Source: a virus. From it: DNA of 32,143 bases. The notes beneath the pieces are model-generated. The model made no database searches and was not told the origin of the DNA. It worked only from the letters and a program-made list of their open reading frames with translations. Both the position numbers and the translations under genes were made by a program. The stretch is from IMG/VR virus record IMGVR_UViG_3300045988_128600, one strand, 5' to 3'. Below, piece by piece: positions 9,801 through 32,143 of this stretch (position 1 is its first letter; every line of letters starts with the position of its first letter).

Positions 9801-10289
9801 ACTTATTTTAATTTAGCAACAGGAAATATTACAACAAACAGTATTACTGTAAATAGTGGAACATTTAAAGATGATATTATTATTAATTATACAGGTAGTA
9901 CTGGTAGCGGATGGACTTATGGAGATCAAAGTTTAAATTATATTTTAGATTAGATTGGAAAAGCCGCCAAAGAAGCTAGCGATTTGGCAACAGCTTCTAT
10001 CACATGGACTCAAGATATAGCTAATGCTTAGACAAGAGCAGACGAAGCTATTAACCAATTAACATATGTAAGTCAAATTCTTAATTATAGAAATGGGTCA
10101 GGAAATATTTATTTACATTATTGGAACCAAGAATCTAGCGCTAGATTTGTTGTTTAGAGCAATGGAACTGTCGGTATGATAGGAGGTACAGGGTATTATT
10201 TAAATGTAACTGATAATTCTATTTATTTACGAGGTCCAGTTGTAATAAATGGTTCATTAACGCTTAATGGAAAAGAAATTACTGGTTGA
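6882..10289 (+). CDS. Large tail-tip/baseplate structural protein (1135 aa; Dit/Tal-position gene), TTG start, TAG read through
   Basis: Frame 0 is continuous from TTG 6882 to TGA 10287-10289 with about 25 in-frame TAG codons. The track ORFs 6882, 7356, 8409 and 9741 are all frame 0. It sits directly downstream of the TMP with a strong SD. The sequence is Asn/Thr/Gly-rich and beta-rich, and the C-terminus reads IYLRGPVVINGSLTLNGKEITG. Confidence 0.75.
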
Positions 10290-10486: not shown

Positions 10487-13366
10487 ATGGTTAATAAATT
10501 ATATCCACCTATTATATCTGGAACTTTACCAGCATTTGTTGGATAGGAAATTGCTATTCCATTTCAAATGAATCGTGCGGTTAGTATGGTAGAAGTTTCA
10601 GGATTGTGTTATATAATTAAAACAGTGTCAAGTAATGTCGTAATTGCTTAGGGGACAACCGCGGATTTTACCCCAAGCAAAGTCCGCGGTTGCTTAGAAC
10701 AAGGGTTTATTACTTTCAATATAAATCTTAAATCAATTACTAATAATGGAAAACCTATTCAATATAAATTGAATCCAGGTTAGTCTTATAAAATTCAATT
10801 AGCATATATTAATACTAATGGAGTAGTCGGATACTATTCTACAGTTGGTATTGCTAAATGTACGACTAAGCCCGCAGTTTATATAAAAGGTTTTGAAAAT
10901 AATTTAGTAGGAATAAATAAAATAAATTTTATTGGAGTATATAGTCAAAAAGAAAAAAATGATGATATTACTGAAAAAGTTTATTCATATAGATTTAAAG
11001 TATATGATGAAAATGGTAATATTTTTGCTGATAGTGGAGAACAATTACATAATTCAATCAATGACACAGAATTAAATGAAAGTTATGATAGTTTTGAATT
11101 AAATAAAGAATTACAAAAAAATAAAAATTATTTTATTCAATATTCTATAACCACTATCAATAACTATGAAGCAGAAAGTATTCGTTATCAAATTATTAAT
11201 AGAGAAACTATTAATCCAGAATTACAAGCGACTCTTTCTGCGGTTATGGATGAAAATAATGGGTATGTAAAAATTAATTTAAATGGAATCCGTGATAAAA
11301 AGACAGGATTAGAAATTCCCGCGACAGGAGCTTTTGCTTTATTAAGAGCCAGTAGCGAAGATGATTTTAATACTTGGAATACAATATTAAAGTTTAAATT
11401 AGTTGGTGAAACTCCTTCAAGAGAATTGTATAAAGATTTTACTGTTGAGCATGGATTTAGTTATCAATATGCGGTATAGCAATATAGCGATGAAACCGCG
11501 GTCCGCAGTAATAAAATTTTCTCTAATACGATATATAGTATTTTTGAAGATAGTTTTTTATACGGCAATGGACAGTTATTAAGAATAAGATTTAATCCAA
11601 AAGTAAGTAGTTTTAAAATCAATACTCTTGAAAGTAAAACTGACACTATTGGAAGCCAGTATCCTTATATTTTCAGAAATGGAAATACTTATTATCACGA
11701 ATTTCCCATAAGTGGTTTAATTTCTCACCTTATGGATGAAGATCACTTGTTTATAGATAAATTGGGCGATGATGAAATTAAAGATTTTACATCAACTGAT
11801 TTGACTAACTATAATATTAATATAGAGCGTCAATTTAAAACTAAGGCTTTAGAATTTTTAACTGATGGAGAACCTAAATTATTTAAGTCTCCAACCGAAG
11901 GAAATTTTATTGTACGTTTATTAAATGTGAGTTTAAGTCCAGAAGATAAATTAGGTCGTATGCTTCATACATTTAGCGGAACCGCTTATGAGATTGACAA
12001 AGTTAGTTTTGATAATCTTACTACTTATGGATTTATTGATGCAAATCCACCTGAAAGTGAAATTCTTAAATGGGATAGTGTATCTTTTGATGGATGGTAT
12101 AAAATTACTGGCTATATTGATGATGTAAATACCTATATTGATAATTTAAAAGATGAAAATTTAACTTAGGCAGAAATTAAGAAATTACAAGCAAATAAAC
12201 AAACTTGTTTAGATAATTTATTACAAACGTTAAGTTTTTATCCTATGTTTGAATTACTATATAATGGAGACCATTATAGCTTATAGACTAAAGATATCTT
12301 GGCTAATTCTCCTGCAATAACTATTCGATTTGAAGGTTTTGCTCCTGGAGATAAATTTAATGTTGATGGAGAAGAAATTGTTATTGGTATTACAGGAGCT
12401 TATTTAATAGATCATGTAGCTCCTATTCATAGTGTAAAAATAATTGAATTATCCGACGTAGGATTACAGCAAGGAACTATTGTATATTCTTATTATGGTA
12501 AACAAGCAAGTAAATTTGATACTATTAGTGATATTCAAGTTGCTGACTTACCTTTAGAGCAATATTATGGCACTGAGGGTAATATTTTAAATCTTTACAA
12601 TGATAATTTCAAATATAAAATCACAAAAATTTATTTCTTGCGTTTTACGAAGCGTGAAGTATAGAAACTATATACTAATAATAGAGTTAATTTTTATATA
12701 GCTCCTGATAGGGTATTGGAAGATAATAATTATACCATGGAGATTAAGCGTGAAGATTTTGATCCAACTTTAATCTATCATGTGTATGTGGTTAAAGAAA
12801 ATGAAGAAAGAGATTATTACATTGATGGTTATACTAAAAAAGAAATTTATGATTCAGGTATTTTAATAGATGAGAAAAATTGGGCCTGTAATATTAGAAT
12901 AAATGAAGATAATAAATAGATTATTGGTATAGACCATAAAAATGAATATCAAATAAAAGATTTGACTGATATTACTTCTATTGAAATTGATCCGGGCGTT
13001 TTATGTGAATTGTCAGTACAACGTCAAGAAGTAGTTTATTCTTTTGAAAATGATAATCAAACTACTTATAGAATTTTTAATGGATAGACCTATACTACAA
13101 CGACTATTTATCAATTAAAGCAAAATTGGTTAAGAGCTAAAAAAGCTTTAAAAGATTTTAAAGAATTAGAACAAGATAAAAGTAATCCTGACTTCTCTAA
13201 CGATGATCCATTTTATAATGTAAATCAAAATAATATTTAGGATTGTATAAAAAAATACAATAGAAAAGTAGCAGAATTACAAAAAACTATAGATGAAACT
13301 TATGCTTTATTCATTGATACTTTAAGAAAGGCGGTAGAGGATTATGAAGACTCAAAGACAATATGA
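10487..13366 (+). CDS. Large baseplate/tail structural protein (959 aa), TAG read through
   Basis: ATG 10487 lies 5 nt after the SD AGGAGGG. Frame 2 is continuous to TGA 13364-13366, with the track ORFs 11246, 11732, 12299 and 12716 all frame 2 and in-frame TAGs at e.g. 10544, 10649 and 11479. It contains a motif LFKSPTEGNFIVRLLNVSLSPEDKLGRMLHTFSG that recalls baseplate hub/tail proteins. Its end overlaps the next gene start by 23 nt. Confidence 0.75.
10656..10692. repeat. GC-rich 10-bp perfect inverted repeat (CAACCGCGGA ... TCCGCGGTTG) inside coding sequence
   Basis: 10656-10665 is the reverse complement of 10683-10692, with a 17-nt spacer. Both arms contain CCGCGG. It lies inside the 10487 gene in an otherwise AT-rich context. 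Confidence 0.6.
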
Positions 13367-15650
13367 TACCGACTTTCTTAAAAAGTTAGATGAATTTAAA
13401 CATAAAGTAGTTTATGCTCGTATTGAGCTACTAACATTTGATGAATTACCAATAGAAAGTATAGAGGGTAAGATAACTGGCGGATCAATTAATATTGATG
13501 GAACATCTGCGGTCCGCCGGTCTTGTTCTCTTACTATGGCCACGAATGAGAAATTATATAAACAATATTCTTGGGGTTTAAATTCTAAGTTTAGTTTGGC
13601 TATTGGATTAGAAAATAAAATTGATAATAAATATCCAGATATTATTTGGTTTAATCAAGGTATTTATTTAATTACATCTTTTAATACTTCTCAAAGTGCT
13701 AGTTCATATAATATCTCTATTCAAGGTAAAGATAAGATGTGTCTATTAAATGGAGATTTAGGAGGAGATTTACCTGCTTCTGTAGATTTTGGACAAGAAG
13801 AAGTAATTACTTATAGTTATAATAAACAAAATAGTATAACTAAAGATAATTATATAAAAGGAAAATATTGTTATATTGTTAATAGTGAAGAAGAAGCTAA
13901 AAAACATAATATTTATTATATTTCTACTTAGAATAAACAAACTACTTATTATGTTTTAGATGAAGAAGAGTTTAGTAATAAAGAGTATTATTTAAGGGAG
14001 AGTTATTTGAATTTAATTTCAATTCCTATTTAGACTATTATTAAAAAACTTCTTACAGTTTATGGCAAAGAAAAAGAAAGTAATATAATTATTAATGATT
14101 TAGATCAATATGGTTATGAGCTATTAGCTAATAAATGTGATGAAACTATGTATTTCTTTAAAGACGCGCAAACGAATAGAATAGTTAATGCTTCAATAGG
14201 GACAATACCTACTTTATTAGATATAAATAATAATAAAATAACTGATATGAGTAGTATTAAATTCGATAATTTAGATAGTAATAAATTATTAGATGACATT
14301 TCTGAACCGACTAAAGTAAGGCTGGTAAATAATGGAACTATTTACACTATTATAAGTCGAATAACTAATGAAACAGTTGGTTATCGTATTTGTGATTTAG
14401 TCTATGCAGGAGAACTTATTACTAGTGTTGGTGAAAATATAACCAGTGTATTAGATAAGATTAAAAATATGCTAAGTTGTTTTGAGTATTACTATGATAT
14501 AGATGGTAGATTTATTTTTTAGCGAAAGAAATTTTATGAATATTAGTCTTGGAATAATATAGTAAATAATTCTAATGGAGATAGTTATATTGAGCCTGCG
14601 GTTTATTCTTCTTCTTCAATTTATTCTTTTAGAGATGGATAGACGGTTATTTCTTTTAATAATACTCCATAGATTACTAATCTAAGAAATGATTTTTCTA
14701 TTTGGGGATAGAGAGAAAGCGCTAGTGGGACAGAAATCCCTATTCATTTAAGATATGCAATAGATCAAAAACCTATTCAATATACCACAATTATTGTGAA
14801 TGATAATGATATAAATAGGTATAAATCTACAATGTATAATAATGATATTTTTGATACTATGAATCTGCAATTAGAACAAAAGACTTATAAAAACAAATGG
14901 TATCAAAGCGAAAATGAACCGGGGGTTATTTATTGCGATTGGCGTGAAGTTTTATATCGTATGGCTGTAGATTATTATCAATATAATTATGCAGATGATT
15001 TTACTAGTAAAGTGGCAACCGCTAACCCTGATTTCTATCCTTCTGGAATAACTGGTTATGAAACTTATTATGTAGATTTATTTTCTTTTTGGAGAGATAT
15101 TTATGATTATGATAAGTTAGATTTTAAAGAAGAAGTAAAGAATAATCCTGAAAATTTAAATTTTTGGTTTGATTTTATTGGGGAAGAAAATGCGGATATT
15201 GCTAAATACTCAGTTCAATTAATCGGAGATAGAACAAAAGCAATTAATGATACTAATATAAAAGTTATATGTTATAGAGATACACCTGATGTATTATTTA
15301 TGACATAGACAGATTATGATTCTATTATTTAGAATAATTATCCAACAGAAAGTGGGTATATTTGGATTAATATTCCTTCTGGATATGATAATTATTTTAA
15401 AATTAGTTCTAAAGGTAAGAGCGCAGTTGATGAAATTGAAGATTTACTTTATACAACAGCTTATTGTACGGAAAGTGTTTCAATTTCTACTATTCCAGTT
15501 TATTATTTAGAGCCTAATAATAGAATTTACATTGAAGATAAAAGAAGTGGCGTTGAAGGAGAATATTTAGTTAATAAAATAACTATTCCATTAACTTATA
15601 ATGGTTCAATGTCTATTAGTGCCACCAAAGCAATATCAAGAGTATATTAA
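13344..15650 (+). CDS. Minor structural / tail-associated protein (768 aa), TAG read through
   Basis: ATG 13344 is preceded by the SD aaggcggtagagg. Frame 0 is continuous to TAA 15648-15650, with the track ORFs 13344, 14148 and 14796 all frame 0. The C-terminal part (YYLEPNNRIYIEDKRSGVEGEYLVNKITIPLTYNGS) resembles phage minor structural / tail endopeptidase-family C-termini. Confidence 0.75.
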
Positions 15651-15663
15651 GGAGGACCACTAA

Positions 15664-16008
15664 ATGGCAAGAAAGATAAGACAAATTCGTTATTATGGTG
15701 AAGGTCTTAATTCTAAGAACTATCCAAGTGATGTTAATATGAGTAAATTAATTACAGGAACCGCATTTAAAAATAATAATCAAAATGTGTTGATTACTCA
15801 GTTGGGTATTTAGACTTTACCAGGAACAAAATTTTATTTGAATGATAGTGCTAATGCTATTATTGTTGGAAATACTGGCATTTATGAACTAGATTTAGAA
15901 GGTATTTCTACTATTAATTTAATTAAATTTGATAGAAGTTCTATGAATTTGATTAATCAAAATAAAGAAGCATATCTTATTATAGATTATTTATTTGAGG
16001 AGGGTTGA
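15664..16008 (+). CDS. Small hypothetical structural-module protein (114 aa)
   Basis: ATG 15664 lies 7 nt after the SD AAGGAGG. It has one in-frame TAG near 15811 and a TGA stop at 16006-16008, followed directly by a TAA and the ATG of the next gene. Confidence 0.6.
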
Positions 16009-16010
16009 TA

Positions 16011-18284
16011 ATGGGTTTTTATGGTAATATAACTAATACTTCAAAAACAACCTTCGCTTTTGATAGAATTTATAATAATAGACTTCAAATGGATAATAAT
16101 TGTGCTAGCGATGGAGTGTTTTTAGGTCGCTATGTTTTAGTCGAGTATGGTCTTCCAGCTTCTTAGTATATAATAGGCTATCTTGACAATAATGGGAATA
16201 TGTATGATGATCCTACTGATAGAAGTGATTCTCATATTATTTTATGCGAAAAAGGAAAAATGGTAAAAATTAGTAAAAGTAGTTATTGGTATTTATATAC
16301 GGGAGATATCAAATCTGATGGGTCTCCGTATTGGAGATATCTTACTAGAATTACTAATGATAGAGTTGATGATGAATAGTATAATAAAAATTATCAAATA
16401 GATTATCCTGTTTATGGACGAGGATATGATTCTACTGTTTGGATAAAACAATATATTAATAATCAAGAAACTTATATTTAGATTGCTGAATTAAATACCG
16501 TTGTTCCAAATTTTTCAATTTATCCATTGCTTCCTCAAGACCCATATGTTGCGGTTGATAACGCTAGTATTGTATATCAACCAGGTAAGTATTATTATTA
16601 CGATGAAACTGATAGTCATTATAAATTAGATAATAATGATACTAAAACTGAGGGACGTATTTATTATTTAGAAAGTGAACTTGGACCGGCGATAACCACG
16701 GATCAAAGTAGCACAAATTTACTTTATAAATTAAGAGTTCCCACTAATTTCCAGCTTGATTTAGATGATAATAATATCTATTATAATAAAGAAGGATTTA
16801 GTAAGATAAAACGTTCTTATGATAGTATTACAGAAAATAGTATTAATTATAAATTAAGTCAGTCAGGATATAAATTTTATTATAATGTAGAATAGGATAA
16901 TGTTGTTGGTGAACCGATTGAAGATGGCTATGACCGCAAATCACTTGTAGTAAAGCTTCCTGCTCTTGGTAATGTGGTATGTGAAACTTATGATTTACTT
17001 TATGGCCAAAATCGTAATGATTCTGTTACTAATTTTGATAAAACTAATGTTAAGGGAGCTTTAAATACTCTTAATAAAAAAATGAATTTAGAAAAATTAG
17101 AGACTAATAAACTTATTTACTTTTCTACTGAAACTGACAATGATATTAATGACAATTATATAAAATCTGCAACTATTTAGGGAGATAATCTAATTTCAAT
17201 AAATGCAGATATTGAAAAAAATGGTGGAGCTATTAAAATTACCCATAATAATTTAGATGTAAATAAAGCATCAAAAAGCTATGGTAAAGATGTTGATTTT
17301 AACACTTTTGGTTCTTCCATTACTTTACCTAAATTATTTACTGATAGAGCTGGGCATGTTGTAAAAGAAGAAACATTCTCAGTTAGTATCCCAAAAGGCT
17401 CTTATGAAAATACTAAAGAGGGTAATGTTCTTACTTCTTTAAGTTTTATTGATACTACTGGAGCTTTAAGTAGTGAGAAATCTTATTTAGGGACTTTAAC
17501 ATTAGGAACTGGATATACTACTAATGATAAATTAAATACTATCACTAAAGATACAACTCTTAATGATAGTATTAGTAAGTTGATTGACAATAGCGATAGT
17601 AAATATAATACTTTATTAGGTCAAACTAATAATAGTTTTGGCAAAGACACTGTTCCAACTCTTTATGGCTTAAGACAAGGGATTAATAGTGATAGAGATA
17701 GTATTAGTAATTTAAGTGATAAAATTGATATTTTAAATGGAACTGTATCTACTACTAATTCTGTTGCTTATAGTATTAAATAGGCTATTGATAAATTAGA
17801 TAAAATTGATAATAAAGTAGACAAACAATTTGTTACAGCGGTAGAAGAAAAAGATGGTTTAATAACTGTTTCAAGAAGCGCCTTACAAGAAAGTGATTTA
17901 CCTATTACTTTTGATGGAACTTATAGTAATAGTAATAAAGTTGCTACTATGAGTAGTTTAAATACTTTAAAAGCAAATCTTTTAGGTGATTATACTGGTA
18001 CATTAGCTGATGTAAATACATTAGCAAATAGTAAATTAAATGAAAGCGCGGTGCGCAGTCTTACATATAATGCGACTTCTGGAAATAATGGAGCTAAAAC
18101 AATAGCAGAAATGTTTGATTTAATTGTAGAATTATAGAATAAAAATACATAGTTAAATACAATTATCAAAGCCTTATAGAATAAAGATATTGAATTAAAT
18201 AATTTAATTGTTGGATTAAGAACTGATGTTGATGCTTTAAAAAATAGCTCAAATAATACTGATACTCCATCTGAAACAACTTAA
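16011..18284 (+). CDS. Tail fibre-like protein (757 aa) with a C-terminal coiled-coil, TAG read through
   Basis: ATG 16011 is translationally coupled to the upstream gene. Frame 0 is continuous to TAA 18282-18284, with the track ORFs 16527, 16974, 17580 and 17949 all frame 0. It has Ser/Thr/Asn-rich beta segments and a heptad-like C-terminus (LNTLKANLLGD...ALQNKDIELNNLIVGLRTDVDALK). A terminator follows. Confidence 0.7.
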
Positions 18285-18372: not shown

Positions 18373-18954
18373 TTGCCTAATACATTAAATAAATATGTAA
18401 AATTTGTCAGAGGTTCTAAAACCGCTTTTGAAAATTTAGGGACGAAAAGAGACAATGATACTTTATATTTTATTTATGGAGAAAATGATTCTTCTGGAGA
18501 ACTTTATTTAGGTAGTCGTCTAATTTGCGGTGGAATTAGTTCCGCAGGTAAGTTAAGCGATTTAAGTGATATTGTTCTTAATGAAGTTAAGACAAATCAA
18601 GTTTTAATTTATAATGAAGAACAAAAGAAATGGGTTAATTAGGGTTTAGAAAATAATGAGACTTTAATTAATTCTATTGTTGAAAAATTATCTACAGAAG
18701 AAAATTTAGCTAAATTAGCTCCTGTTTTTAAGGGCACAGTCCCAGGTTTAGTTCCAGTTTCTTTACATGAAATTAAAGGAGAACATATTCTTACTGATGC
18801 AGGTACATGGATTAATATGCCAGTAGGAACATTAACTTAGGGAGATATTGAAACAATTAATATAGCTAATAAATATTTAGTAGATAAAGGTCCTGATAAT
18901 TTGGTAACTCGTGTTGAAGCAGTTGAACAAACTGTTTCTTGGACTGATATTTAA
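18373..18954 (+). CDS. Small fibre-associated protein (193 aa) with the shared N-terminal anchor motif
   Basis: TTG 18373 lies 9 nt after the SD AAAGGAG. It has one in-frame TAG at 18640-18642 and a TAA at 18952-18954. The N-terminus VKFVRGSKTAFENL...LYFIYGENDSSGELYLGSRLI resembles the common phage tail-fibre / Mtd-N-type N-terminal domain. Confidence 0.65.
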
Positions 18955-18968
18955 AGGAGTGAAAAAAA

Positions 18969-20630
18969 TTGAACGTTAAGTTTTTAAAAGGCTCTCAAGC
19001 CGAATTTGAAAATGTGGCAGGTAGATATAAACCTGGTGCGTTTTATTTAGTAATTAATGACGATAAGTCCGCCGAAGATTATAAAAAGCCAAGCCGTCTT
19101 TATTATGGCGTAGATGAAAATAATTGTGTTCCTGTAAATCAAGGTATTAATGTAGTTGATACTACCGCAGGTTTACCCCAAGGTTTTACTCAAAACACTG
19201 CTGGTGAATTTTATTATGTAAAAGATAAAAATATTTTATGTATTAATAATGGTAAAGGTTGGATTCAAACTAACACCGATACTGTTTTAAATACTAATAA
19301 AAAAGATAGCAATGTATCAGTAAACAGCAATCCTGAAAAACCTAATGGAGTTTCTATAACTAATACTATTGCTGATAGTAGTGGTAATATTATTACTGAG
19401 ACTTATGATATTATAGGTAGCGATTATATCCAAATTGAAGCAATTCCTGCTGTTGATGATAAAGGCGTAGATACTGTTAAACTGAGTTTAAAAGGAATCA
19501 ATTATCAATTAAGCTCTTCTTTAAATGAAAAAACTTTAAATGTTAATTTAAAGAATAGTGATACTGATGCAGGTAATTTTAATATTATTGCTGGTAGTAA
19601 TGTTAATATTGCTGAAACTTCTACAGGAAACTATACTTTAAGTGTAAATAAAGCTGTTGATAGTATTGATGTAATTAATCGTGTTGGTGGTACTGGTTTT
19701 ATTGCTTCTATTAGTGGTCCTGGCGTTGAAGGAGCTGGTAATGGTACGACTTTATCTGCTGATATTGATCCAGAAATTGCTTTAGAAGGCAAGACTGGTG
19801 GCTACAAATTTAAAGATGGCGTTTTAACTCTTCCTGTTTATAGCAAGCAAGATATTGATAATCAACTTAGAAGTATTAATGCTATGGTATTTCGTGGCGG
19901 ATTCCAAGTTAAAGATGGAGCTATTGCCTATGACAATTCTGATATTACTGAAATTACTGAAGGTAATACTTTTATTTATACTGGAGCCGAAGACACACTT
20001 TGGAATGGTCATTATTTACGTCCTGGTGATTTAATTATTGCTTCTAGTGAAGAGGTTAATGGTGCTATTACTGGTACTATTAATTGGACCTATGTTCCTT
20101 CTGCCGATGATCCTGTTACTGAAATTGAAGGAGCCAATGATAATAGTACTGCTGGTTTTATCATTAAACTTGGTTCTACCAAAAAACTTTTAGATTATGC
20201 TCTTAACGGTGAAAGTGGCATTGTTTTAGAAACAAAAGTTTTAACAGATTCAAAAGGTCAACCTACTAATTCTAAAGTTGTTACTATTAAACATAGTAAT
20301 ACTTTAACTGTAAATACTCCAGTTTCTCAATCCTATGCTGATGAACAAACTATTACTATTAATGAGCCAACTGAAATTGATGCTCAAGGGCATGTAATTA
20401 AATCTACTCAAAAAACTTTTACTGTAAAAAATACTCATCAAGAAATTGCTAATGCAGATTATACAGTAAATGGTACTGATACTTTAATTCCTAACCTTAA
20501 AGTTGCTGGCGCTGATCTTGAAGGCAAACCGCTTGTTTTCACTAGCAATAGCCTAAAAGTTAATGTTTCTGCGGCGACTGTGACTGATGATGCTAAAGTC
20601 AATTTTGAGTTAGAGTGGGGAACATTCTAA
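18969..20630 (+). CDS. Putative receptor-binding / tail fibre protein (553 aa), entirely free of TAG codons
   Basis: TTG 18969 follows the SD aaaggagtg. It is an uninterrupted standard-code ORF ending at TAA 20628-20630. The N-terminus VKFLKGSQAEFENV...FYLVINDD...RLYYGVDENN carries the same anchor motif as the genes at 18373, 20749 and 31183. It is Gly/Thr/Asn-rich and beta-rich, and a terminator follows. Confidence 0.8.
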   Translation: MNVKFLKGSQAEFENVAGRYKPGAFYLVINDDKSAEDYKKPSRLYYGVDENNCVPVNQGINVVDTTAGLPQGFTQNTAGEFYYVKDKNILCINNGKGWIQTNTDTVLNTNKKDSNVSVNSNPEKPNGVSITNTIADSSGNIITETYDIIGSDYIQIEAIPAVDDKGVDTVKLSLKGINYQLSSSLNEKTLNVNLKNSDTDAGNFNIIAGSNVNIAETSTGNYTLSVNKAVDSIDVINRVGGTGFIASISGPGVEGAGNGTTLSADIDPEIALEGKTGGYKFKDGVLTLPVYSKQDIDNQLRSINAMVFRGGFQVKDGAIAYDNSDITEITEGNTFIYTGAEDTLWNGHYLRPGDLIIASSEEVNGAITGTINWTYVPSADDPVTEIEGANDNSTAGFIIKLGSTKKLLDYALNGESGIVLETKVLTDSKGQPTNSKVVTIKHSNTLTVNTPVSQSYADEQTITINEPTEIDAQGHVIKSTQKTFTVKNTHQEIANADYTVNGTDTLIPNLKVAGADLEGKPLVFTSNSLKVNVSAATVTDDAKVNFELEWGTF

Positions 20631-20691
20631 GGGCAATACTATTTAATAATAAATATAATTTTTTCTATTTTATATAGAAGAATGTTTTTAT

Positions 20692-20728
20692 GGGGAAAGA
20701 TGAAATATTCTTTCCCCATATTTTTTTT
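20692..20728 (+). terminator. Rho-independent terminator
   Basis: GGGGAAAGA (20692-20700) pairs with TCTTTCCCC (20709-20717) around the loop tgaaatat, followed by an 8-T run. Confidence 0.7.
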
Positions 20729-20748
20729 AGGATAGAAAGGAGTAAATT

Positions 20749-23700
20749 ATGTCTAAGATACGTTTTCGTCCTGTATAGGGTCCAGAAAAAAAAATAAAAG
20801 AATATCCTCAAAGCGATGGATATTTTTATGTGGCAACAGATACAGGCCGAGTTTATTTAGATACGGCAACTGAAAATAAAATGCCAATAGGGTCTAGTGG
20901 TGTTCAGGTAATTTACGGTACAGATAATACTGTAGAAATTGAATATGATGCGGATGAAAACCCAGTGGCTTATTTAATTCTTTTATCAAAATTATCTATA
21001 ACAAATTGTCATATAGATGATTTAATTTTAAATTTAGACGGATGTTTTTATCGAATTTTAGGATTTGCTTTAAATGAAAACCGCGAAGAATGCGCGAGAT
21101 GTGAAAAATTAACTGTCGCCGGGGCAGGCGGTGGCGGAGAAGGAGACTCTGAACAAAAAGTTTTAGGAACTGTTTCTTTAACAAGAATTCCACCCGATAG
21201 TCCTGTTGATGTTTTGAATGAAGAAAATGTTAAAGTAAAGGTATTGGTTAAATGTAGAACTGTTGGAGGAGTTCCACAATCTTCGTCTGTGCAAGGAATT
21301 ATAACTATAAGTGAAATTAAAAGTGCTACAGAAAAAGAAATTTATTATACTTCTCCTCCTACTACTTATGAGCACAATATTCCGCAAGAAATTGATTTAA
21401 CTAATATTTTAAGAAATTCATGTTCTAGTGAAATTAATTTTAGTATTTATTATAATCCTGATAAAGAAAATAATAGATTTTAGAAAAGCTCTGATACTAT
21501 TAATATTAATAAACATCATCTTTCTTTTAGTTGGAAAGAAAGTAGTTTTAGTAATGATAGTCCAGTTGACAATGGACAAATATCTGTTAGTTGGTTAATG
21601 TCTGAAGATATCGCCAGATCTGTTGAAGTTTATTTTGATGATTATTTAGTTTTAGATAGAACTTATAGTGATACTGATTCTTCTTCTGAAGATTCTTTTG
21701 TTATTACTCCTGATACAAATATATTAGGGACTGATAAAGTTTCTACTTTAAAAAATTATTTTACTCATGGTGAGCATATAATAAAAGCAAAGTTATATTT
21801 AATGAATAATTCTAAAAAAGGTGCAGGAACAGATTTTATTCAGAAAGAAATCGTTATTCAAGAACCAGGTAATAAAATGCCTTTAATTTGGGTACAAGAT
21901 TTTAAAACAGAATATTATACTTATGAGACAATAAGAATTCCTTTTAAAGTATTAGATCCAAATAATAATGGAGCTTTTATAACTCTTTATAAAAATGGTG
22001 TTCAAGTAGGAACTAGAGAATTAGATAGTTCGCAAGTTAGAGAATGGCAATATTGGGAAATTACTAATTTAACTGTAGATGATAGTTCTTATTATACTAT
22101 TAAAGTTGGTACTGATCCTTATTCTTATTCTCGTAATTTTAATTTTACAATTTTAATTGACCCTTTAAGAGATATGAAGTTAGTAAAAAAAGATAATTTA
22201 AAGGTTAATTTTATAGCTACTGGTCGTTCTAATTCAGAAGGAAAATTAGGTCGTGAAACTTATTTAATTAATAATAATAAATATGTAGAATTTAAAAATT
22301 TTAATTGGTATAATAATGGTTGGGTTTTTGATGAAAATAATACGACTTGTTTACGAGTAAGCAATGGTGCTGAAGTATCTATCCCAGTCGGAAAAATGGC
22401 TTTTAAAGATGAATCATCATCTGCTACTATTGAGATTCAATTTAAAATAAAGAATCCTCAAAATTATGCTAAAGTTATAACTAAATATACTAGATATAAA
22501 GTAAGTAAAGATAATTGGGAAGATAATGATGCTTGGGATAAATTTAAAGCCCAAAATAAATATCTTAATTATGATGAGTTTTTAACTAAAGAATATTTAC
22601 CAACAACTAATTATACTTATGATGATTTAGAATATAATAAAATAGAACAAGATTTTAATTTAAAGAATTTAGTTTGCGCATATGGTAAATTAGGGAATTC
22701 TGTCTCTCCTGGTATTTATTTTAGTCCATAGGATGCTGTATTTACAGCTAACGGGGCTCAAGAAACAGTTTCAGTTGATTTTATTGAAAATGAAATGCTA
22801 AATCTTTCATTTGTTTATACTAAAAAGAAAAGTGATATAGAAGGCGGAAATTCTAAATTATTAGAAATTTTTATGAATGGCGTTTTAACTAGTGTTGTAC
22901 GTTGTAGTAGTGATGTTTGGAATATTGATTCTGATTTCATTAAATTTATGTCTAATACTTGTGATATTGATATTTATAGTATTAGAGTTTATGATACAGA
23001 TTTAACTATTCCTGAAATAGTCCAAAATTACGCTTTTGATAAGAGAAGTATAAAACAGTGGGACCAAAAAGATCTTTATGAAAACAATACGGTATTAAAA
23101 GATGATGTATTTTCTTATACTAAAATGAAAAAGTATAATGATAATCATCCAACTGAACCTTTAATGCCCTATATTATTTTAAGGACTACTAAAAATAATA
23201 AAAATAATACGGATAATAGATTACCTTATTCTAAAGCAAAAGGAAGCTAGGAAGGAACTTTAGAATTTGTTAACACTGCTTTAGACGCTGCTTACAATAG
23301 TGGTGAATTAGAAAAAGTTGCTATAAAAGAAGGATGGAAACCTGTAATCGAAAAAAATGAAGAAACATAGGAAGAAGTAGTAAAATATACTGTGGTATAG
23401 AATTATTATATGCATCATTGTCCTAGTTTTATAACTGTTCTTAATGGATGTACTTTCCAAGTTCAAGGTACTTCTTCACAATTTTATCCTCGTCGTAATT
23501 ATAAAGCTAAATGCAAAGAATCAATGCTTTTAAATAGAGGCCCATTTGCTGAAGACTATAAAAAAGCAGGAGACTAGTATAATGAAGATATAACTAAACA
23601 TCCTTGCTATTTAGAGTGGTTTTATATGGATAATAAAACAGTTGGTACTACTAAATTTACTTTAAAAATAGATTTTATGGAATCTTCTGGAGATTATAAT

Positions 23701-26700
23701 AGAGGATTTGCTAATTTAGTTAACGAGATTTATTCTAAACATCCAGTAGAAGACTATAAGGATTCTTTTGATAATTATAATTTATATGGAAATTTAGAAG
23801 ATTATCGCACTTCGGTAAAAGGATTCCCCGTTTTAGCTTTCCATTATATGTCCAACGATGATAATACTTACTCTAAGGAAAATAGTAATAACTGTATTTT
23901 TATTGGCAAATATAATATGTTATTAGATAAAGGCTCAGATGAATGTTTTGGATTTAAACCAAATAAAAAGATTTTACAAAATCAAATTACGGGCAATCCT
24001 AAAGTAAGAGATATGGCAGAATGTTGGGAATTTTAGAACAATTCAAGAACTTTTTGCTCTTTCCGCGACCCTTGGAATCGTTATAAATTATCATTTAGAA
24101 ATCCTAATATGGTAATCCCTCCAGATGGAGATAATCCTGAATTAGTTAAAGGCGCTCCAAAAGTCGTTGATTCTTTTGAACCAAGATATAATCCAAATGA
24201 TGATTTAATTGCTGATAATTTATTTAGTTTAAAAGAGTGGCTTGATCCAGATGGGACATAGACTAAGATTGTTGGGGAAGAATTAAAAAATGTAGCCCCA
24301 GATAGACTTACTAAAAAAGAAATAGTTGATGAAATTACTGGTATAAAATCTATTAAATGGATTATAAAGAACCCAGACGGAGAAGAAATAGAATTTAATG
24401 TTGCTAATGATACAAGTAAACAAGAATTACTTTTAGCTTTAATGTCTAACTGGGAAGACGCAGTTAGTTGGGTATGGAGTACTTGTTTAGATTGCGATAT
24501 TGAATTTGATGATGGATAGAAATTAAAAATTCCATCTATGGGCATTTATACTAAAGTTGATGGATTAGCTGAAGCTATATATATTCCTAATGTCTATTAT
24601 GTTGAAGATGGAGTTAATGAAAATGGAAAAATTATTTATAAATTAGCTTCTGAAGAATATAACTCTGAAACAAGATATTATAAGTAGATTAATGAAAATA
24701 ATAGTTTAAAGTATGTAAGCATAAAACTTACAAATAATTCAGATAAAGTATATAAAGCAAATATTTATTATCTTTTAACTGATAGTAAAAATGAAATTTA
24801 TGTATTAAGTTCTGATAAATTTAATTCTTCTTTAGACTATTATTCTTTTAATAAAAATGAAGAAGGTATTGAGGAAAGATGGAAATTACCTAATCCAGTA
24901 ACCTATGGCTCTATTACTTATACTAAAGATAGTAAAGAATACCGTCAAGCTAAATTTAAAAATGAATTAAGTAATTTCTTTGATATTGAATATTTAGCTT
25001 CTTACCTTTTAATGACAGAAATTTTTGAATGTTATGATTCTCGTGGAAAAAATGCAATGTTTGCTTCTTGGGGACCTCAAAAAGGCAATATTCAAAAATC
25101 TACTGGTAAACAACATTATGTTTGGTATCCTATCTTTTATGATATTGATACTCAATTAGGTATTAATAATACTGGTATCCCATCCTTTGAATACTATATT
25201 GATGCTACTGAAGAAGGAAGTTTTTCAACTAATGATAGTGTTCTTTGGAATAATTTTTACACTTTCTTTAGAAGCAAGATGGTGGATAAATATAAGCAAT
25301 TAATGGGAACTCAAAATAATTCTTATAGTCCAAATGATTCAAGAGTAAATAAAATTTTTACTAAAGGAGCAGGAAGCGGAGCTAAAAAGAGTGATATCGT
25401 AGATAAATGGTATCGTACTGATCCATCGGTATTTCTTGATAGTTATGCAGTTTTGGGAGACCGACCAATTATTGCTTTAAGTTTAGACGAAGAATTTAAG
25501 TATATTATTCCAACAAACTCTAAAGCTGAAAATATGCCAGTGTTTGGTCGTTTAACTGATGGAGGTTCATATGAGGTTGAAGATGATAAATATTTTTATG
25601 CTTTGCAAGGAGATAGAAATCTTTATCGCGCGCAATTTTTAGCTAATCGTCTTAATTACATTGACTCTTGGTTGACTGTTGGCACTTATGCCAGAAATGG
25701 CGGAGGAAGCTATATTAGAAGTCGTATTTCTGCGAACAATCCTAAGAATACATCAGATAAATGGATTGAAGGTACTAACACTCAAAATATGGAAGGATTA
25801 ATTACAAATTCTCAGTATTGGAAAAATGGTGCTGAATTCGAAGAAAAAAATCATATGTTTGATGGTGAGTATTGGATTAACATGGAACCCGCGCGTAATG
25901 CCTATGTTACTATTGGTACAGATGGAGAGAATTTTCCTTCAAAAAAATATAATGGTTTAGAACCGGTTAAATATGTAGCTCCTGATATTAAAAAAGGAAT
26001 TATGAGTAGCGGTAATTATAAAGAACAATTATATTACATTTATGGAATGGATCAAATGAAATCTCTTGGTGATTTAAGCAAATTATATTTCCAAGAGTTT
26101 GCAGCTGAAGGAAAAATGGAGCGTTTAACTGATTTATTATTAGGATATGATGGAAAAGATGAAAGCGGTAATGAATATTTTAATAATGATGTAAATGACT
26201 GGTCTTTTTCAAAAGGCGGAATGCCTTTACTTAAAGAAATGAATCTTTGTAATATTAACTTTAAAAAAGACTAGGGGGCATTAGATTTAACTAAAAGTGA
26301 AAAACTTGAAAACTTTAGAAATACTAAATCTAATATCCCGAGAGTTAATTTTGCTCCTGGAGTAGCTTTAAATACTTTATATTTAACCAATCGAACAAAT
26401 TATTTAAGTTTAATAGAAGCTAATTTATTAACGAAATTAATAACTAACTATATATATCCTGAAAAAAATCCAATTACTGGAAAACTTGAGGTCTCAGATG
26501 AAAATCGTGGTTTATATATTCAAGATCTTACTGATGCTGAAGAAGGAAAAGAAAAAACCGAGATAAGAACTTTTGATATTCGAGGCGGTAATTTAGGTTA
26601 TAATAGTTATGAATTGTTACGCAAATATATTTCAGCTAGTAAAAATAGTAAATTAGATTTATCTAATTGTATTATTAATTTAAATAATGTTTAGTGGAGT

Positions 26701-28494
26701 CCATATAGACTTCTGACTGACACTAAAACAACTCTTGATCCAGAAAGAAAATCTTATTATAGAGATAATGGACATTTTTAGTTGGTAGCTATTCCAAAAG
26801 ATTAGGTTAATAAAATAACAAAATCTGATATTAAAAATAATTAGATTTATTATTTAGATACAATAAATGGAGACAATAATAATCATAGTATAATAACTGA
26901 TTATAATTTATTAATTGATATTTATAATAATTATAGGGGTCTTAATACTAATAAGCCAGAAATATCTGGTGTTATGTATATAAAAAATAATAATTAGATT
27001 GATGAATCTATTATCTAGAATGAGTTATAGGATAAATACCCTGATTTAATAATTTTTGTAGAAAATGTTAAACAAGAATGTTCTGCCAAGTTTATTTTAG
27101 AAAAAGAAGATATTGATGGAGTGTTAATTTAGGAGGTTCTAAAAACTTAGAAATTACCCTTATCTAGCAGTAAATTCTTTGATGATCCAACAAATTCTTC
27201 TAGCGAAACTTATATTTCTTTTGGTAGTTTACAAGAAAAAATGCCAACTTATGATTTTAAAGGTTGGGAAGATGATACGGGAAAATTAGTAATTACTGTT
27301 GGAAAAAACGTAAATGAAGAAGATGTTGTTTTAAAAAGCGATTGGAATTCTTTGTCTTTACAATCTAATAAAATGGATTATATTTTTAAAGCGAGATTTG
27401 AGCGCAAATCTTATACGATCACTTTCGTTAATGGTGACCGCGTTATTAATGATTCAACTGTAAAGAAAGTATTTAATTATGGTGAAAGAATTACTGTTCC
27501 AGAAGAATTCTATTATTTTAATAATACAGAAGTATCTGATTTACCAGAAGGCGAAGACCCATTAGAATGGACTTGGAAATAGGCTGGATGGGCGGATAAA
27601 GATGGAGTTAAAATTGATTTAACTAAACAATTAGCCTATGCTGACCGCGAATTCTACGCTGTTGGAGAGCCGATTAGTGTTTATGATAATATTTTAACTA
27701 ATGATTCTACTCATAAATATTATGATATTATAAATTCTGATGGAGAGTTATCGTTTGTAATGACTGACTTAGCTAAGAATTTAAAAGGCAAAATTACTTT
27801 ACCTACAACTTATAATGGTTAGCCAATTACAAGAATTAAATATAGCCAAGTTAACCCATCAGCAGCAGTTGGTATTCAAGTAAATCCTAATATCACTGCG
27901 ATATTTTTTGCTCCAAAAGATAGCAATAAAATTTCTGTAATAGATGATTATGCTTTTATTTTAGATAGTGGGTTAGAATATTTCCAATTTAGTGATTGTT
28001 TAAAGAAAATTGGTACTAAAGCATTTTATCAATGTCCTTTAAGTCGTAATAACATAATTCCTTATTCTTCTTCTACTGAAGGTTTGACTTTTGGAGCTCA
28101 AGCATTTTATCAAAGTAAGATGGGTTCTTATTCTCCTTATAATTTAATTATAGAGGGATGCAAAGACGGTATTCTTAATTTTGATATAAATGCATTTTCT
28201 GGTCAGACAATTTTAAATATGTCTGGTAATTAGTTTAAAGGTTATACTGGCGCTATTCAAGTATAGATTGGTACTAATAAACACCCAATTAAACAAATTA
28301 CAGCAGATAGCTCTGGCAATATTTTTACTCCTCGTCAAACTGGTATGCCTACAGTGGCTAATGGATACACAGGTCGTTTTAGATATTATTATGTTGCTAG
28401 TTATGGTGAAAGTATTAAAAATACTTTACACAATATTTATGAAGCAATGATATCTAATAGAGCGAATTTTGAAGAAGAGCCTATTGTAAAGTGA
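20749..28494 (+). CDS. Giant multidomain tail fibre / adhesin (about 2581 aa), TAG read through
   Basis: ATG 20749 lies 7 nt after the SD AAAGGAG. Frame 1 is open to TGA 28492-28494; I checked this codon by codon across 21481-21600, 24034-25014 and 26272-28494. The track ORFs 20830, 21598, 22795, 23626, 25012 and 27241 are all frame 1. The N-terminus carries the anchor motif (IRFRPVQGPE...YFYVATDTGRVYLD). A LamG/ConA-like stretch follows (NSKLLEIFMNGVLT...CDIDIYSIRVYDTDLTIPEIVQNY). A CotH-like stretch is present (KNAMFASWGP...HYVWYPIFYDIDTQLG). The C-terminal part has BspA-type LRR-like repeats (IGTKAFYQCPL...LTFGAQAFYQS...FDINAFSGQTIL). Domain calls are by eye only. Confidence 0.7.
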
Positions 28495-28503
28495 GGATAA
28501 ATT

Positions 28504-28704
28504 ATGGAAAAAGAAATTGTTTATAGATATATGGGTTCTAATGGTATTATTGAATCTTCTATATAGTTGACAGGAATTCCTGCGACTACTTTGTATAGAT
28601 TAATAGCAGATTACAATAAGAAATTAACGAGAGATGGAAAAGAATTTTTTTCCATCTCTCCTTTAGTCCCTGAAAGTGAATTAAAAGAATGGTATGAGGT
28701 TTAA
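28504..28704 (+). CDS. Small protein (66 aa) with a helix-turn-helix-like segment
   Basis: ATG 28504 follows a weak SD (tgagga). It has one in-frame TAG at 28564 and a TAA at 28702-28704. The segment IQLTGIPATTLYRLIADYNKKL resembles an Xis/AlpA/MerR-type HTH. A strong terminator follows. Confidence 0.5.
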
Positions 28705-28740
28705 ATAGGCCAGAATACATTGATTTAAATATAAAAAAAA

Positions 28741-28782
28741 TTAGGTTAAATAGGAAAAGAAACTATTTAACCTAATTTTTTT
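28741..28782 (+). terminator. Strong rho-independent terminator, possibly bidirectional
   Basis: A perfect 13-bp stem, TTAGGTTAAATAG (28741-28753) against CTATTTAACCTAA (28763-28775), with the loop gaaaagaaa. It is flanked upstream by an 8-A run and downstream by a 7-T run. Confidence 0.75.
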
Positions 28783-28800
28783 AGAAAGGAAGAGATAGAT

Positions 28801-30477
28801 TTGATAGTTAAAAATGATAGTGTTATCGAACAAGCTAAATGGGAAGAACTTCAAAAGAAAATCAATACTTTAGCTAAAGATAATAAAATAAAAAACGTTA
28901 ATGGAAAAATCGTTGAAATAAAATCTATTGAAGACTATTATAGTAATATTACTGGTATCGTTCAAATGAAGAAGTTAGATCCATCTGTTCTTCGCATACC
29001 TTTAGATGAGCCTATTATAAATATAAATGCTGATACTCGTCAAATTGAATTAACTAAAGAATTTGGAAAAACTCAATTACTTACTGTTGAAAATGATCAT
29101 TTAGCAGAAACAATTTATTTTCAAATTGATAGATATTTTGATTTACAAGATTTAGCAGCTGATGATATTAAAATTTATATTTAGTATTATCTAAATGATC
29201 AAATTCAAGGTTATTCTGAAGCTATTTGCCCTGATATTGGTACTGCTGGAAAATTAATTTTTGGTTGGCAAATTAGTGATGAAGTAACTAGTGAATCTGG
29301 TACTTTATAGTTTTCTATTATTTTCTTCAAAAAGAATCCAAAAGATAATAATAATTTAATGTATGTGTTTAATACATTACCTGCGCAAATGGTTATCAAT
29401 AAAACTTTAGACATTGATGAAGATTTAGTTACTGCGCAACCTGTTGATTATTTAACTGGGTATTTAGAAAGTTTAATCGATTCAAAGAAATCCGCGGGCT
29501 TTGGAGTCCCTGATAATGTGGCTTTCTTGACAAGTATTTTAAATAATAAATCAGTTTATTTAACTGGTGATAAATTATATGCTTTAGCTTATAATGATAC
29601 TTTAAACAATCCAGATAATACTACTATTGAATATAAATGGATTTGTAATTATAGAGGAACTAATACTGAATTAAAAAATGGTATTGGTTATGAATACAAA
29701 AAAATTGTTGATGATAATAGTATCTTTAGTGGAGATATGGCTTATAATGAAAAATTGACCTATTTTACTAAAAATGGAGATACTTATATTAATAGTAGTA
29801 GTGATATTAATCTTGAAAATTATGTTGCTAAAAAGAATGACCTTTATTTAAAAGTTCAATATTGTGAAGTTGATGGATGCGGAAGTTATAGTGTGACAGC
29901 ATTTGGCGCAACCGCGAATCAAGTAAGTAAAGAAGTTAAATGGGCTGGATTAGCTATTTCTGTTGAAGGTATTAGCGAAGATTTTAAAATTATTCTTGAT
30001 CCCTCCCCTGATAATGGATGTTATTATGGCTCTTCTAATACAATTACTGCTATTGGATAGAATGATGAAGGAGTTCAATGTACTTATCTTTGGACAAAAA
30101 ATGGGTCTGAATTTAGTAATGAAAAAACTGTAACTTTAACTCAAGAAGATAATTACACTTTAACGGTTCATGGGTATAAAAATAAAGATAATATAGATTA
30201 TGGTCCAATTAATTTTACCAATTATTTTGACCCTATTAATTTAGTACCTACTGGTGAAGTAAAAACTGAAAATGGAAAATATATTGTTAATATCACTAAT
30301 ACTAGTGAGTTGGGAAATGGAATTTATGAATATTAGTGGAAAAATGCTGAAGGTGTTACTCAAATAACTACTTCTGGGACTAATAACGCAATAGAAATAA
30401 ATGAAAATATTACTCAAGTGGCTGTCATTATTAAAAAAGGTGAAAGAAATTCAAAGCCAGGAGTACTTACGATATAA
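28801..30477 (+). CDS. Tail fibre / baseplate protein (558 aa) with Ig-like C-terminal repeats, TAG read through
   Basis: TTG 28801 follows the SD gaaaggaag. Frame 1 is continuous to TAA 30475-30477, with the track ORFs 28801 and 29359 both frame 1 and in-frame TAGs at e.g. 29182 and 30058. The N-terminal 110 aa (DHLAETIYFQIDRYFD...) are paralogous to the next gene. The C-terminus (CTYLWTKNGSEF...YTLTVHGYKNKD) looks Ig-like. Confidence 0.7.
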
Positions 30478-30489
30478 GAGGTAAGATAA

Positions 30490-31110
30490 ATGATAACTAA
30501 TCCAACTGATTATTATAGCGTTTTACATCAAATACAAGATGAAAATTTTCCAGTAAAATATCCAGCTCTTCCTGCTCCAGAAGATGAAAAATTAGTTTAG
30601 GTAAATTTAAATTCAAGGATTATTAGTAATGAAAATAATTATATTACAGTTGAAGGCGATCACGCTGCTGAAATTATTTATTTTGAAATAGATAGATATT
30701 TTGACACTATGGATTTAACTAATATGATGTGTATTATTCAGTATATTAATGCTGATAATGAAAAGCGCATTTATCCAGTTCCATATTATGACACTTTAAC
30801 TCATAAAGATAAAATTATTTTTCCTTGGGTTTTAAATTATAGTGCTACTAAAAAATCTGGCAATTTAAATTATATGATAACTTTTTACAAAATAGAAAAA
30901 GATTCTAATAATTTATTATATAATTTAAACACATTGCCAGCAAGCCTTTAGGTTTATTCTAAACTTAATTTAGATTCTATTGTAAAAGAAGAAGATTATT
31001 ATGTAATTGATGATAGCCAAGTAGTCCAACAAATTTGGGAACGTTTAGCTCGTTTGGAAGGATTTGTTGGTGGTAATGGGTTGGATGTTTATTGGATTGT
31101 TCTTGAATAA
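30490..31110 (+). CDS. Fibre/baseplate-associated protein (206 aa), paralogous to the N-terminal domain of the 28801 gene
   Basis: ATG 30490 follows the SD AAGAGG. Frame 1 runs to TAA 31108-31110 with a TAG at about 30598 read through. It contains GDHAAEIIYFEIDRYFD, against NDHLAETIYFQIDRYFD in the upstream gene. Confidence 0.7.
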
Positions 31111-31120
31111 ATAAACTAAA

Positions 31121-31160
31121 TGGTATAGAATTATTAATTAATTCTATACCATTAATTTAT
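31121..31160 (+). terminator. Hairpin terminator
   Basis: A perfect 12-bp inverted repeat, TGGTATAGAATT (31121-31132) against AATTCTATACCA (31140-31151), followed by T-rich ttaatttat. Confidence 0.6.
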
Positions 31161-31182
31161 AGAAAGGAGTTATTGAAGATCG

Positions 31183-32143
31183 ATGGCTCTATTTAAAATT
31201 TTAAAAGGAGACTCAAATAATTTAGTTTCCTATGATAATGCTGAAGTAGTTAATGGTAAAATTCCTTTTCCTGCCTTGGGTTCAGGAAAAACTTTATTTA
31301 CAACAGTAGATAGTACTCCTATTACAGAAGGATACGCTTATTTCACAGAAGATACTCATAAATTTTATATTGATACTAAAGACAAAAGATTAAATTTATA
31401 TACTGATCACGCGGATTATGCTACTTATGATGAAAATGGACGTAATTTAGCAGAATTATCAGAAGTATCTTATGAAAATATTGATGATACTGGAGGACAG
31501 ATTGGAGTAATAAATATTAATGGTATTGAATATCCTATTACTTGTCCTGCTGATATCGCTGGAAAAACTATAAACAAATATACTTTTGATGTTAGCGCCG
31601 ATTAGATGGTTTTTACTATTCCTTTTAATTTTAGTGATAGTAGTACACTTACTCTTTATTATAATGGTATTATGATTTAGGAAGCAGAAAATTATACTAT
31701 AGATGGTAATACTATTATTTTAAATGGTTGGAAAGGCAAACAAGGGGATTTTCTAACTGTAATGGGTATCGAAGGAGCAGCTGGAATTAATGTTGATGAA
31801 GATATTATTCGAATTTAGACTGAGTTAAATAAAGCTTTAGAAAAAATTAACTCTTCCACTGAAAACTTAATCTATAAAAATAAATCTAATATAATGACTG
31901 CTGATGGCAGAATTATAATGGATAGTAATTATGTTCCTACAACTGATATGGAATTAGCTACTAAAAAATATGTTGATAATGCCACTCCCCCTACGGTTGG
32001 AACTACTACTGATTATTCTATTTATATTGGATCTACACAACCTGCTTCTGGGACCGCTCCTTTAGTATGGATAGATACAACTGCTAAAACTGGCACTTTT
32101 AAATATAGAACTTCTACCACAGGTACTTGGACCCCTGTCCCCG
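31183..32143 (+). CDS. Tail fibre protein, 3'-partial (over 320 aa), TAG read through
   Basis: ATG 31183 follows the SD AAAGGAG with a 13-nt spacer. Frame 1 is open to the window end, with TAGs at 31603, about 31678 and about 31816. The N-terminus FKILKGDSNNLVSY...AYFTEDTHKFYID carries the anchor motif. An internal TDMELATKKYVDN segment is typical of fibre shafts. Confidence 0.7.

Follow-up and report, generated by a model that had tools for sequence, protein, structure and literature searches.

Mtd_N (PF18454) is the N-terminal domain of the major tropism determinant (Mtd) of Bordetella phage BPP-1, and it also begins many tail fibres. According to PMC9230537 it is one of the structural domains with which receptor-binding proteins begin; the classical pattern of such proteins is a conserved structural N-terminus followed by an exchanged C-terminus (PMC9230537, PMC6872550). 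Here we describe four genes, called A, B, C and D, which begin with related modules of this kind and lie in the tail region of a virus represented in IMG/VR by the record IMGVR_UViG_3300045988_128600; the whole stretch analysed, 32,143 nucleotides long, is referred to as the window. The architecture is that of a known and common kind of tail fibre, of which the copies in the window are a new, divergent member. Their main value lies in the annotation of two sub-families that are invisible to Pfam, and no new mechanism is proposed.

The closest described systems are phages with several receptor-binding proteins, namely the Klebsiella phages KP32/K11, phiK64-1/RaK2 and phiKp24, and the CBA120 tailspikes. 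As in those phages, the tail module described here contains several fibre or spike genes which combine conserved N-terminal parts with unrelated, horizontally exchanged C-terminal parts (PMC6872550, PMC9700779, PMC10253068). On the other hand, the anchors of those phages are T7-tail-like, XD or T4 gp10-like domains, whereas the module here is Mtd_N-like; moreover, they infect Gram-negative hosts and carry depolymerase spikes. Assembly order and simultaneous display were established experimentally in those phages, whereas here we infer them. With Mtd_N itself our module shares the character of a short N-terminal element of tail-fibre-type proteins, presumably trimeric here too, followed by variable C-terminal parts. 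It differs in that the copies in the window are not matched by the Mtd_N model, which also fails to detect the C and D sub-families, and in that neither sequence nor fold matches the Mtd crystal structures significantly.

The four N-terminal modules and their homology

A, B, C and D are long open reading frames (ORFs) only when TAG is read as a sense codon. The genes and their module copies lie in the window as follows; below, L-numbers denote loci of relatives and P-numbers denote database proteins or fragments.

18373-18954, + strand: gene A, 193 amino acids, TTG start, two in-frame TAG codons, Shine-Dalgarno sequence aaaggag
18394-18516, + strand: module of A, residues 8-48, YVKFVRGSKTAFENLGTKRDNDTLYFIYGENDSSGELYLGS
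18969-20630, + strand: gene B, 553 amino acids, TTG start, no in-frame TAG codon
18969-19112, + strand: module of B, residues 1-48, MNVKFLKGSQAEFENVAGRYKPGAFYLVINDD[KSAEDYKKPS]RLYYGV
20749-28494, + strand: gene C, 2581 amino acids, 25 in-frame TAG codons, including codon 10, which lies in the module
20749-20865, + strand: module of C, residues 1-39, MSKIRFRPVQGPEKKIKEYPQSDGYFYVATDTGRVYLDT
31183-32143, + strand, running past the end of the window: gene D, 320 amino acids in the window (342 in the L001 orthologue)
31183-31377, + strand: module of D, residues 1-65, MALFKILKGDSNNL[~33-aa insertion]EGYAYFTEDTHKFYIDT

The module is built from a strand (h-[KR]-h-x-x-G), a short helix or turn that ends in a hydrophobic residue, a variable loop and a tight beta-hairpin, with the consensus h-[KR]-h-x-x-G-x-x-x-x-h ... 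G-x-h-Y-h-x-x-D-[TD]-x-x-h-Y-h-[GD]. In a joint alignment of 49 sequences the Gly of K-F-x-x-G and the first Tyr of the hairpin are invariant, while an Asp and the second Tyr are nearly so. The loop between the two halves varies, with insertions of 0 to about 35 residues. The original prediction, made from the letters of the window, had described a related motif at these four N-termini with its halves a uniform 20 or so residues apart; the motif was confirmed at all four, and the spacing was not, as D has an insertion of about 33 residues in the loop between the halves and B one of 12 residues inside the hairpin turn. These insertions are the reason why curated models miss the copies in the window. 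Orthologues from more distant phages carry more canonical versions, for example in three consecutive genes of L016 (YIKFKRGTPTAFNNLAQKDSDTLYFIYEEDEAVGQLWIGD; VMFKRGPSTNLPWSSAVDGAFYLTSDTNRLYVGNG; AFRVARGLDKNINQLPYKDGYVYFATDTKKIYLDT), and the consensus of the D family, drawn from 45 database fragments, reads MALFKILKG..GYAYFTPDDGKFYID.

Pairwise BLASTP aligns A with B (31% over 45 amino acids) and C with D (45% over 20). When a profile of 16 N-termini was searched against 5.8 billion proteins, it retrieved 97 further fragments belonging to the same four sub-families. Comparison of the resulting family alignments with hhalign linked A to B at 95.5% (E 1.6e-8), B to C at 95.7%, B to D at 94.8% and C to D at 97.7% (E 2e-12), with a weak link between A and C (19.8%) and none between A and D; relative to a null of shuffled columns (60 shuffles per target) the z-scores were 13.5 for A-B, 18.4 for B-C, 11.8 for B-D and 15.4 for C-D. 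A repeat run returned 95.1% for B-C, 97.8% for C-D (E 7e-13) and 94.5% for B-D, with alignments spanning both halves of the module. Since the database fragments had come from a joint profile, the test was redone with families obtained from synteny or whole-protein searches only, which gave 93.5% for A-B, 71.4% for B-C and 88.6% for C-D; the N-termini of five other gene families of the same phages, used as controls, stayed at or below 3.3%. A combined hidden Markov model (HMM), run on 609 six-frame segments of the window, found exactly four copies, all at ORF starts and scoring 40-52 bits, the next best segment reaching 3.7 bits. Models from which one family was left out still ranked the omitted window copy first, at E 0.052 for A, 0.023 for B, 1.1e-5 for C and 1.9e-6 for D.

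To judge from these profiles, the four N-termini form a chain of homologues, A-B-C-D. With family profiles, the similarity described in the original prediction is thus statistically solid. At the DNA level a repeat search of the window found no similarity between the modules, which makes them old paralogues rather than recent duplicates; by this reasoning A, B, C and D would be ancient paralogues only in their first 40-65 residues. AlphaFold2 monomer models of B (residues 1-113) and D (residues 1-140) have a mean predicted local distance difference test (pLDDT) score of 68 and 67.5, respectively, rising to about 90 over the D hairpin, and both form a short helix behind the conserved Gly, with the two segments that contain the Tyr residues as strands. 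A Foldseek search with these models returned nothing significant.

Past the module, B has a second conserved motif (VNQGI...GEFYYV..NIL...W.Q.N). A short version of it is common to A at about residues 60-90 (18550-18640; ..VLIYNEEQKKWVNQ) and B at about residues 55-101 (19170-19290; ..ILCINNGKGWIQTN), and it is kept across the B family as G.FYYV..NIL.V....W.Q.N.

Superfamily, distribution and modularity

PF18454 matches none of the four window proteins, either at E<=1 with whole proteins or at E<=10 with isolated N-termini. It is matched by 10 of 28 relatives in the B family (best E 4.8e-7), and 3 of the 28 match PF24243; precomputed annotations place PF18454 on P0019, P0024 and P0035, and PF24243 on P0012 and P0021. 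PF24243 ('Phage tail tip domain', Phage_tail_C) is a model of 26 positions that spans the module's first strand, its helix and the start of its hairpin, and it matches A-type N-termini, while some B-type members match both models. In window A it covers residues 10-35, with 17.3 bits for the whole protein and 20.5 bits (E 3e-4) for the N-terminus alone, against a curated cut-off of 23.7 bits; the best E in a scan of nine N-termini, drawn from all four families in the window and in relatives, was 2e-6, and the B, C and D copies of the window gave no match. Unlike the module described here, PF24243 also occurs internally in at least one relative (P0183, residues 133-157), so it is not strictly N-terminal. 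None of 12 members of the C family has any Pfam match and only 1 of 27 in the D family does (E 0.12); both families are tied to the Mtd_N superfamily only by profile-profile links to B, whose family, with its Mtd_N-positive members, aligns over the whole module to A at 95.5%, to C at 95% and to D at 94.5% in hhalign. NCBIfam has nothing for the four proteins, and Pfam and PHROGs are largely silent on them; a literature search for PF24243 or PF18454 found no paper.

Taken together, the module appears to belong to a superfamily around PF18454 and PF24243, and C and D look to be large sub-families that Pfam still does not recognise. The original label of a widespread Mtd_N-type module was accurate as to 'widespread'; 'Mtd_N-type' seems fair as a superfamily label, by way of B, and would not denote family membership for the window copies, none of the four being matched by PF18454. 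N-termini of the C type (F-R-P-V-Q-G...GYFYVATDTG.IYLD) and the D type (MALFKILKG...GYAYFT.DDG.FYID) are abundant in gut viromes and are missed by Pfam, NCBIfam and PHROGs alike. By their link to the Mtd_N superfamily, thousands of 'hypothetical proteins', giants of 2,000-2,600 amino acids among them, can be marked as being of tail-fibre type, and their downstream parts become candidate host-range determinants.

A module profile searched against 1.84 billion representatives matched 3,760 clusters (50% identity) at E<=1e-3, 362 of them at E<=1e-10. The match starts within residues 1-16 in about 143 of the best 150 relatives, and the proteins that bear it range from 60 to 2,635 amino acids, many being giants of 2,000-2,600 amino acids like C. 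In a few database proteins (P0156, 2123 amino acids; P0165, 631 amino acids), 5-11 separate internal stretches match the module profile; these are probably propeller-like hairpin repeats and not fibre N-termini.

Multi-copy arrays are common, and the four-gene set is real but ordinary. Among 79 IMG/VR loci found through a D-type N-terminus, 32 carry the module at the start of two to four genes within 10 kb, a count that is too low for 18 close relatives of this phage, in which the C copy lies 10.4 kb from D. Three module genes follow one another in L039, L060 and L082 and four in L092, and two adjacent copies occur in a prophage of Clostridiales bacterium CCNA10, whose genome is complete. These arrays of uncultivated phages and Clostridiales prophages resemble ours in having two to four consecutive genes with the same module. 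They differ in that the phages are mostly not TAG-recoded relatives and their copies do not have the insertions of B and D; among the loci examined, a module protein of about 2,500 amino acids occurs only in the direct relatives of this phage.

Past the module, A, B, C and D have no significant similarity to one another, in agreement with the unrelated C-termini of the original prediction. Among close relatives, identity is 95-99% for A and 94-99% for C, 82-97% for B and 63-90%, with indels, for D, the most variable of the four; the first 100 or so residues are conserved and the variation lies downstream. In the distant loci L012, L014 and L016, A and D are recognisable only over their first 100 residues or so, and homologues of A retain only that part. 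The order A-B-C is kept in all lineages examined (L001-L013, L014 and L016), and all four genes are co-directional, each with its own ribosome-binding site. This conserved order makes it likelier that several fibres are displayed together than that the genes are alternative cassettes. Of the exchangeable cassettes suggested originally, swapping of C-terminal parts over evolution was borne out and a switching system was not, given the fixed order and the lack, in the window, of a repeat like that of a diversity-generating retroelement (DGR).

The distal parts of A and B contain no domain recognisable to Pfam, PHROGs or NCBIfam, and a search with full-length B returned only close relatives without annotation. 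D has weak matches to the tail-fibre family phrog_2710 and to DUF4183. C has orthologues of 2488-2592 amino acids in L011, L012 and L014. Its central part, residues 655 to about 1550 (22700-25400 in the window), matches two unannotated families, phrog_14959 (E 6e-52; residues 655-1070, function unknown) and phrog_24896 (E 8e-25), and a PDB sequence search with the central 836 amino acids gave noise or nothing. Residues 2393-2454 show a weak match to a BspA-type leucine-rich repeat (LRR_5, E 7e-4), which is likewise flagged in the L014 orthologue; such repeats are typical of surface adhesins. A possible likeness of C to CotH-type proteins at about residues 1480-1520 (HYVWYPIFYDIDTQLG) is a lead that neither Pfam nor the PDB sequence search supported.

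Possible function and competing explanations

We consider it probable that the four genes encode fibre-type proteins in which the N-terminal module serves as trimer plug and docking part, with several host-recognition proteins on each virion. Three copies of the module would assemble into a small trimeric plug that would keep the three chains in register and attach the fibre, by its N-terminus, to the baseplate or to a second fibre. Binding or enzymatic activities, differing from protein to protein, would reside in the unrelated C-terminal parts, so that each virion would present several host-recognition proteins simultaneously; over evolution, these parts are exchanged behind the conserved module. 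This function is proposed because of the position of the module, its pattern of conservation and the known roles of Mtd_N-type and other fibre N-termini. At the level of genes the locus looks as expected of a phage with multiple receptor-binding proteins: four genes with a homologous N-terminal module and unrelated remainders, downstream of tape measure and tail genes. The role of the module as an anchor, trimerisation, docking and the simultaneous display of all four are what we infer from this arrangement.

Several points weigh against this proposal. Physical attachment and the joint presence of all four proteins in the virion are predictions from the genes. The AlphaFold2 models are monomers of moderate confidence, which cannot reveal an intertwined trimeric beta-prism like that in the Mtd crystal structures; with the B and D models Foldseek found no PDB match below E 0.4. 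A PDB sequence search with three module profiles matched no solved structure, Mtd and HylP included, and hit only the hairpins of designed and natural propellers, so the hairpin half has no diagnostic value by itself. All window copies stay below the Pfam gathering thresholds, BLASTP gave nothing significant for the cross pairs between A/B and C/D, and A is linked to C and D solely through B.

Some of these points might be taken to mean that the similarity is due to chance or composition, a generic beta-hairpin in an AT-rich genome without common ancestry: BLASTP does not join A/B to C/D, Pfam is blind to C and D, and the hairpin consensus also fits designed and natural propeller blades. We regard this as extremely improbable and already largely refuted, since hhalign assigns a probability of 94-98% to alignments that span the two halves of the module, at z-scores of 12-18 relative to shuffled columns, families built on synteny remain linked while control N-termini do not exceed 3.3%, and the window holds exactly four matches, all at ORF starts. 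It is also very unlikely that the four are alternative cassettes, of which one or a subset would be used per virion after switching by inversion, a DGR or recombination. The link to Mtd, itself a DGR target, brings this to mind, as does the striking variability of D among near-identical phages; yet all four genes share one strand and have separate starts and Shine-Dalgarno sites, and their order is fixed in all relatives. A DGR, considered because of the Mtd link, found no support in the 32 kb: it would consist of a pair of template and variable repeats (TR/VR) of about 100-150 nucleotides with adenine-specific mismatches, plus a nearby reverse transcriptase gene, and the window has no direct repeat longer than 61 nucleotides and none with a TR/VR pattern, while the modules have no similarity as DNA. 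No recombinase gene was seen in the 32 kb, and no reverse transcriptase turned up in general Pfam and PHROG scans (genes from 6882 onwards; the tape measure by PHROGs only), no dedicated search having been made.

The other explanations concern what the module does. That not every one of the four binds a receptor, and that some instead help to build a single composite or branched fibre, stacking by the same plug, with A as an adaptor and C as a scaffold, is possible though doubtful. A is a short protein in which no binding domain was recognised, C is huge and, unlike B and D, 94-99% conserved among close relatives, and branched fibre systems are known (PMC9700779, PMC10253068, PMC6872550); the weak BspA-type repeat match near the C-terminus of C, typical of surface adhesins, speaks against this reading. 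Somewhat less likely is that the module is only an N-terminal nucleus of folding and trimerisation (a 'foldon'), the tail being contacted by other parts of the proteins. At the top of the Foldseek lists for both models stand the trimerisation domains of collagen XV/XVIII, with a probability of up to 0.8 and a root-mean-square deviation of about 1 Å over 25 residues, although these matches are not significant, nor are those to HylP (6x3m, 2c3f) and Mtd (1yu0-1yu4), listed at E 1-7; with the collagen domains included, the E-values span about 0.6-7. A, B and C are conserved to about residue 100, beyond the module, and this longer region could hold the docking surface; however, in characterised fibres and spikes the conserved N-terminus is generally the virion-proximal attachment part (PMC6872550, PMC9230537), and the module sits at the extreme N-terminus in nearly all of its best relatives. 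Rather improbable, finally, is a single generic socket on the baseplate or on C, for which the paralogues would compete or which they would fill in a fixed hierarchy, B being a recent import from a standard-code phage that plugs in through the universal module; virions would then have a mixed or programmable complement of fibres.

Genetic code, tail context and neighbouring genes

Read with the standard code, the window breaks up into many short ORFs. With stops restricted to TAA and TGA, 12 long ORFs on the + strand span nearly all of it, and recoding TGA or TAA instead brought no gain in ORF length. The 12 genes contain 136 in-frame TAG codons, all on the + strand, and in alignments with orthologues TAG stands opposite Gln in 41 cases, the runners-up being Lys and Glu with 12 each. 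TAG is, on this reading, a glutamine codon across the window, as the original prediction had assumed. The locus is a clear case of stop-codon recoding in a phage: its tail module can be read only with TAG taken as Gln. Every gene start, including the TTG starts of A and B, has a strong Shine-Dalgarno site 6-12 nucleotides 5' of it, and these sites point to a Firmicutes-like host.

The absence of TAG from B sets it apart: none occurs in 553 codons where 7.5 would be expected (P about 5e-4), and its G+C content of 0.326 is the highest of the cluster. The B orthologue of L014 (10891-12606) likewise has none in 571 codons (GC 0.351), while those of L011 and L016 have 7 and 4, respectively. B may have been imported recently from a standard-code phage.

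The phage is large (about 160-200 kb), uncultivated, from the gut, and uses TAG for glutamine. IMG/VR contains its relatives as contigs of 97-201 kb, and gene B has an exact copy on a contig of 185,922 bp. Among INPHARED phages, megablast with 22 kb gave no nucleotide match and tblastn with canonical B-type and D-type N-termini gave nothing at E<=0.01. A search with a conserved stretch of C, residues 685-1121, found only two distant records of human-faecal phages, one annotated as 'hypothetical protein' and one without annotation. Rescanning IMG/VR with the C alignment returned the same 13 loci. The contig of a near-identical phage, L097 (CAMELE010000001.1, 163,874 bp; 96% identical in the D N-terminus), is assigned to a metagenome-assembled genome that bears the label 'uncultured Mollicutes bacterium', a label that could be a hint to the host or a binning artefact from shared low G+C (0.29).

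The region from A to D appears to be the distal part of the tail module, because a tape measure gene matching phrog_4211 and a tail protein gene matching phrog_1887 lie upstream. The remaining genes of this part of the window are:

2-6766, + strand: partial tape measure gene, 2254 amino acids, phrog_4211 (E 5e-11)
6882-10289, 10487-13366, 13344-15650 and 15664-16008, + strand: four large tail or baseplate genes, seen as ORFs with Shine-Dalgarno sites; the one at 13344-15650 matches the tail protein family phrog_1887 (E 1.7e-10)
16011-18284, + strand: fibre-like gene, 757 amino acids, with another conserved N-terminus (MGFYGNI...; MGFYGNITNTSKTTFAFDRIY...)
28801-30477, + strand: ORF between C and D without the module, 558 amino acids
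30490-31110, + strand: ORF between C and D without the module, 206 amino acids

The N-terminus of the fibre-like gene at 16011-18284 is 56% identical over 52 residues to that of a 1544-amino-acid orthologue in L014, the remainder having diverged, and L016 has no counterpart; it is a further kind of conserved N-terminal module within the same cluster. The genes at 28801-30477 and 30490-31110 are paralogous to each other along about 140 amino acids (BLASTP, 37% identity, E 1.6e-15), which is also visible as a DNA repeat at 29081 and 30644 (79% identical). They have the motif DH.AE.IYF.IDRYFD..DL in common, and the longer of the two ends in weak matches to immunoglobulin-like and PKD-like domains.

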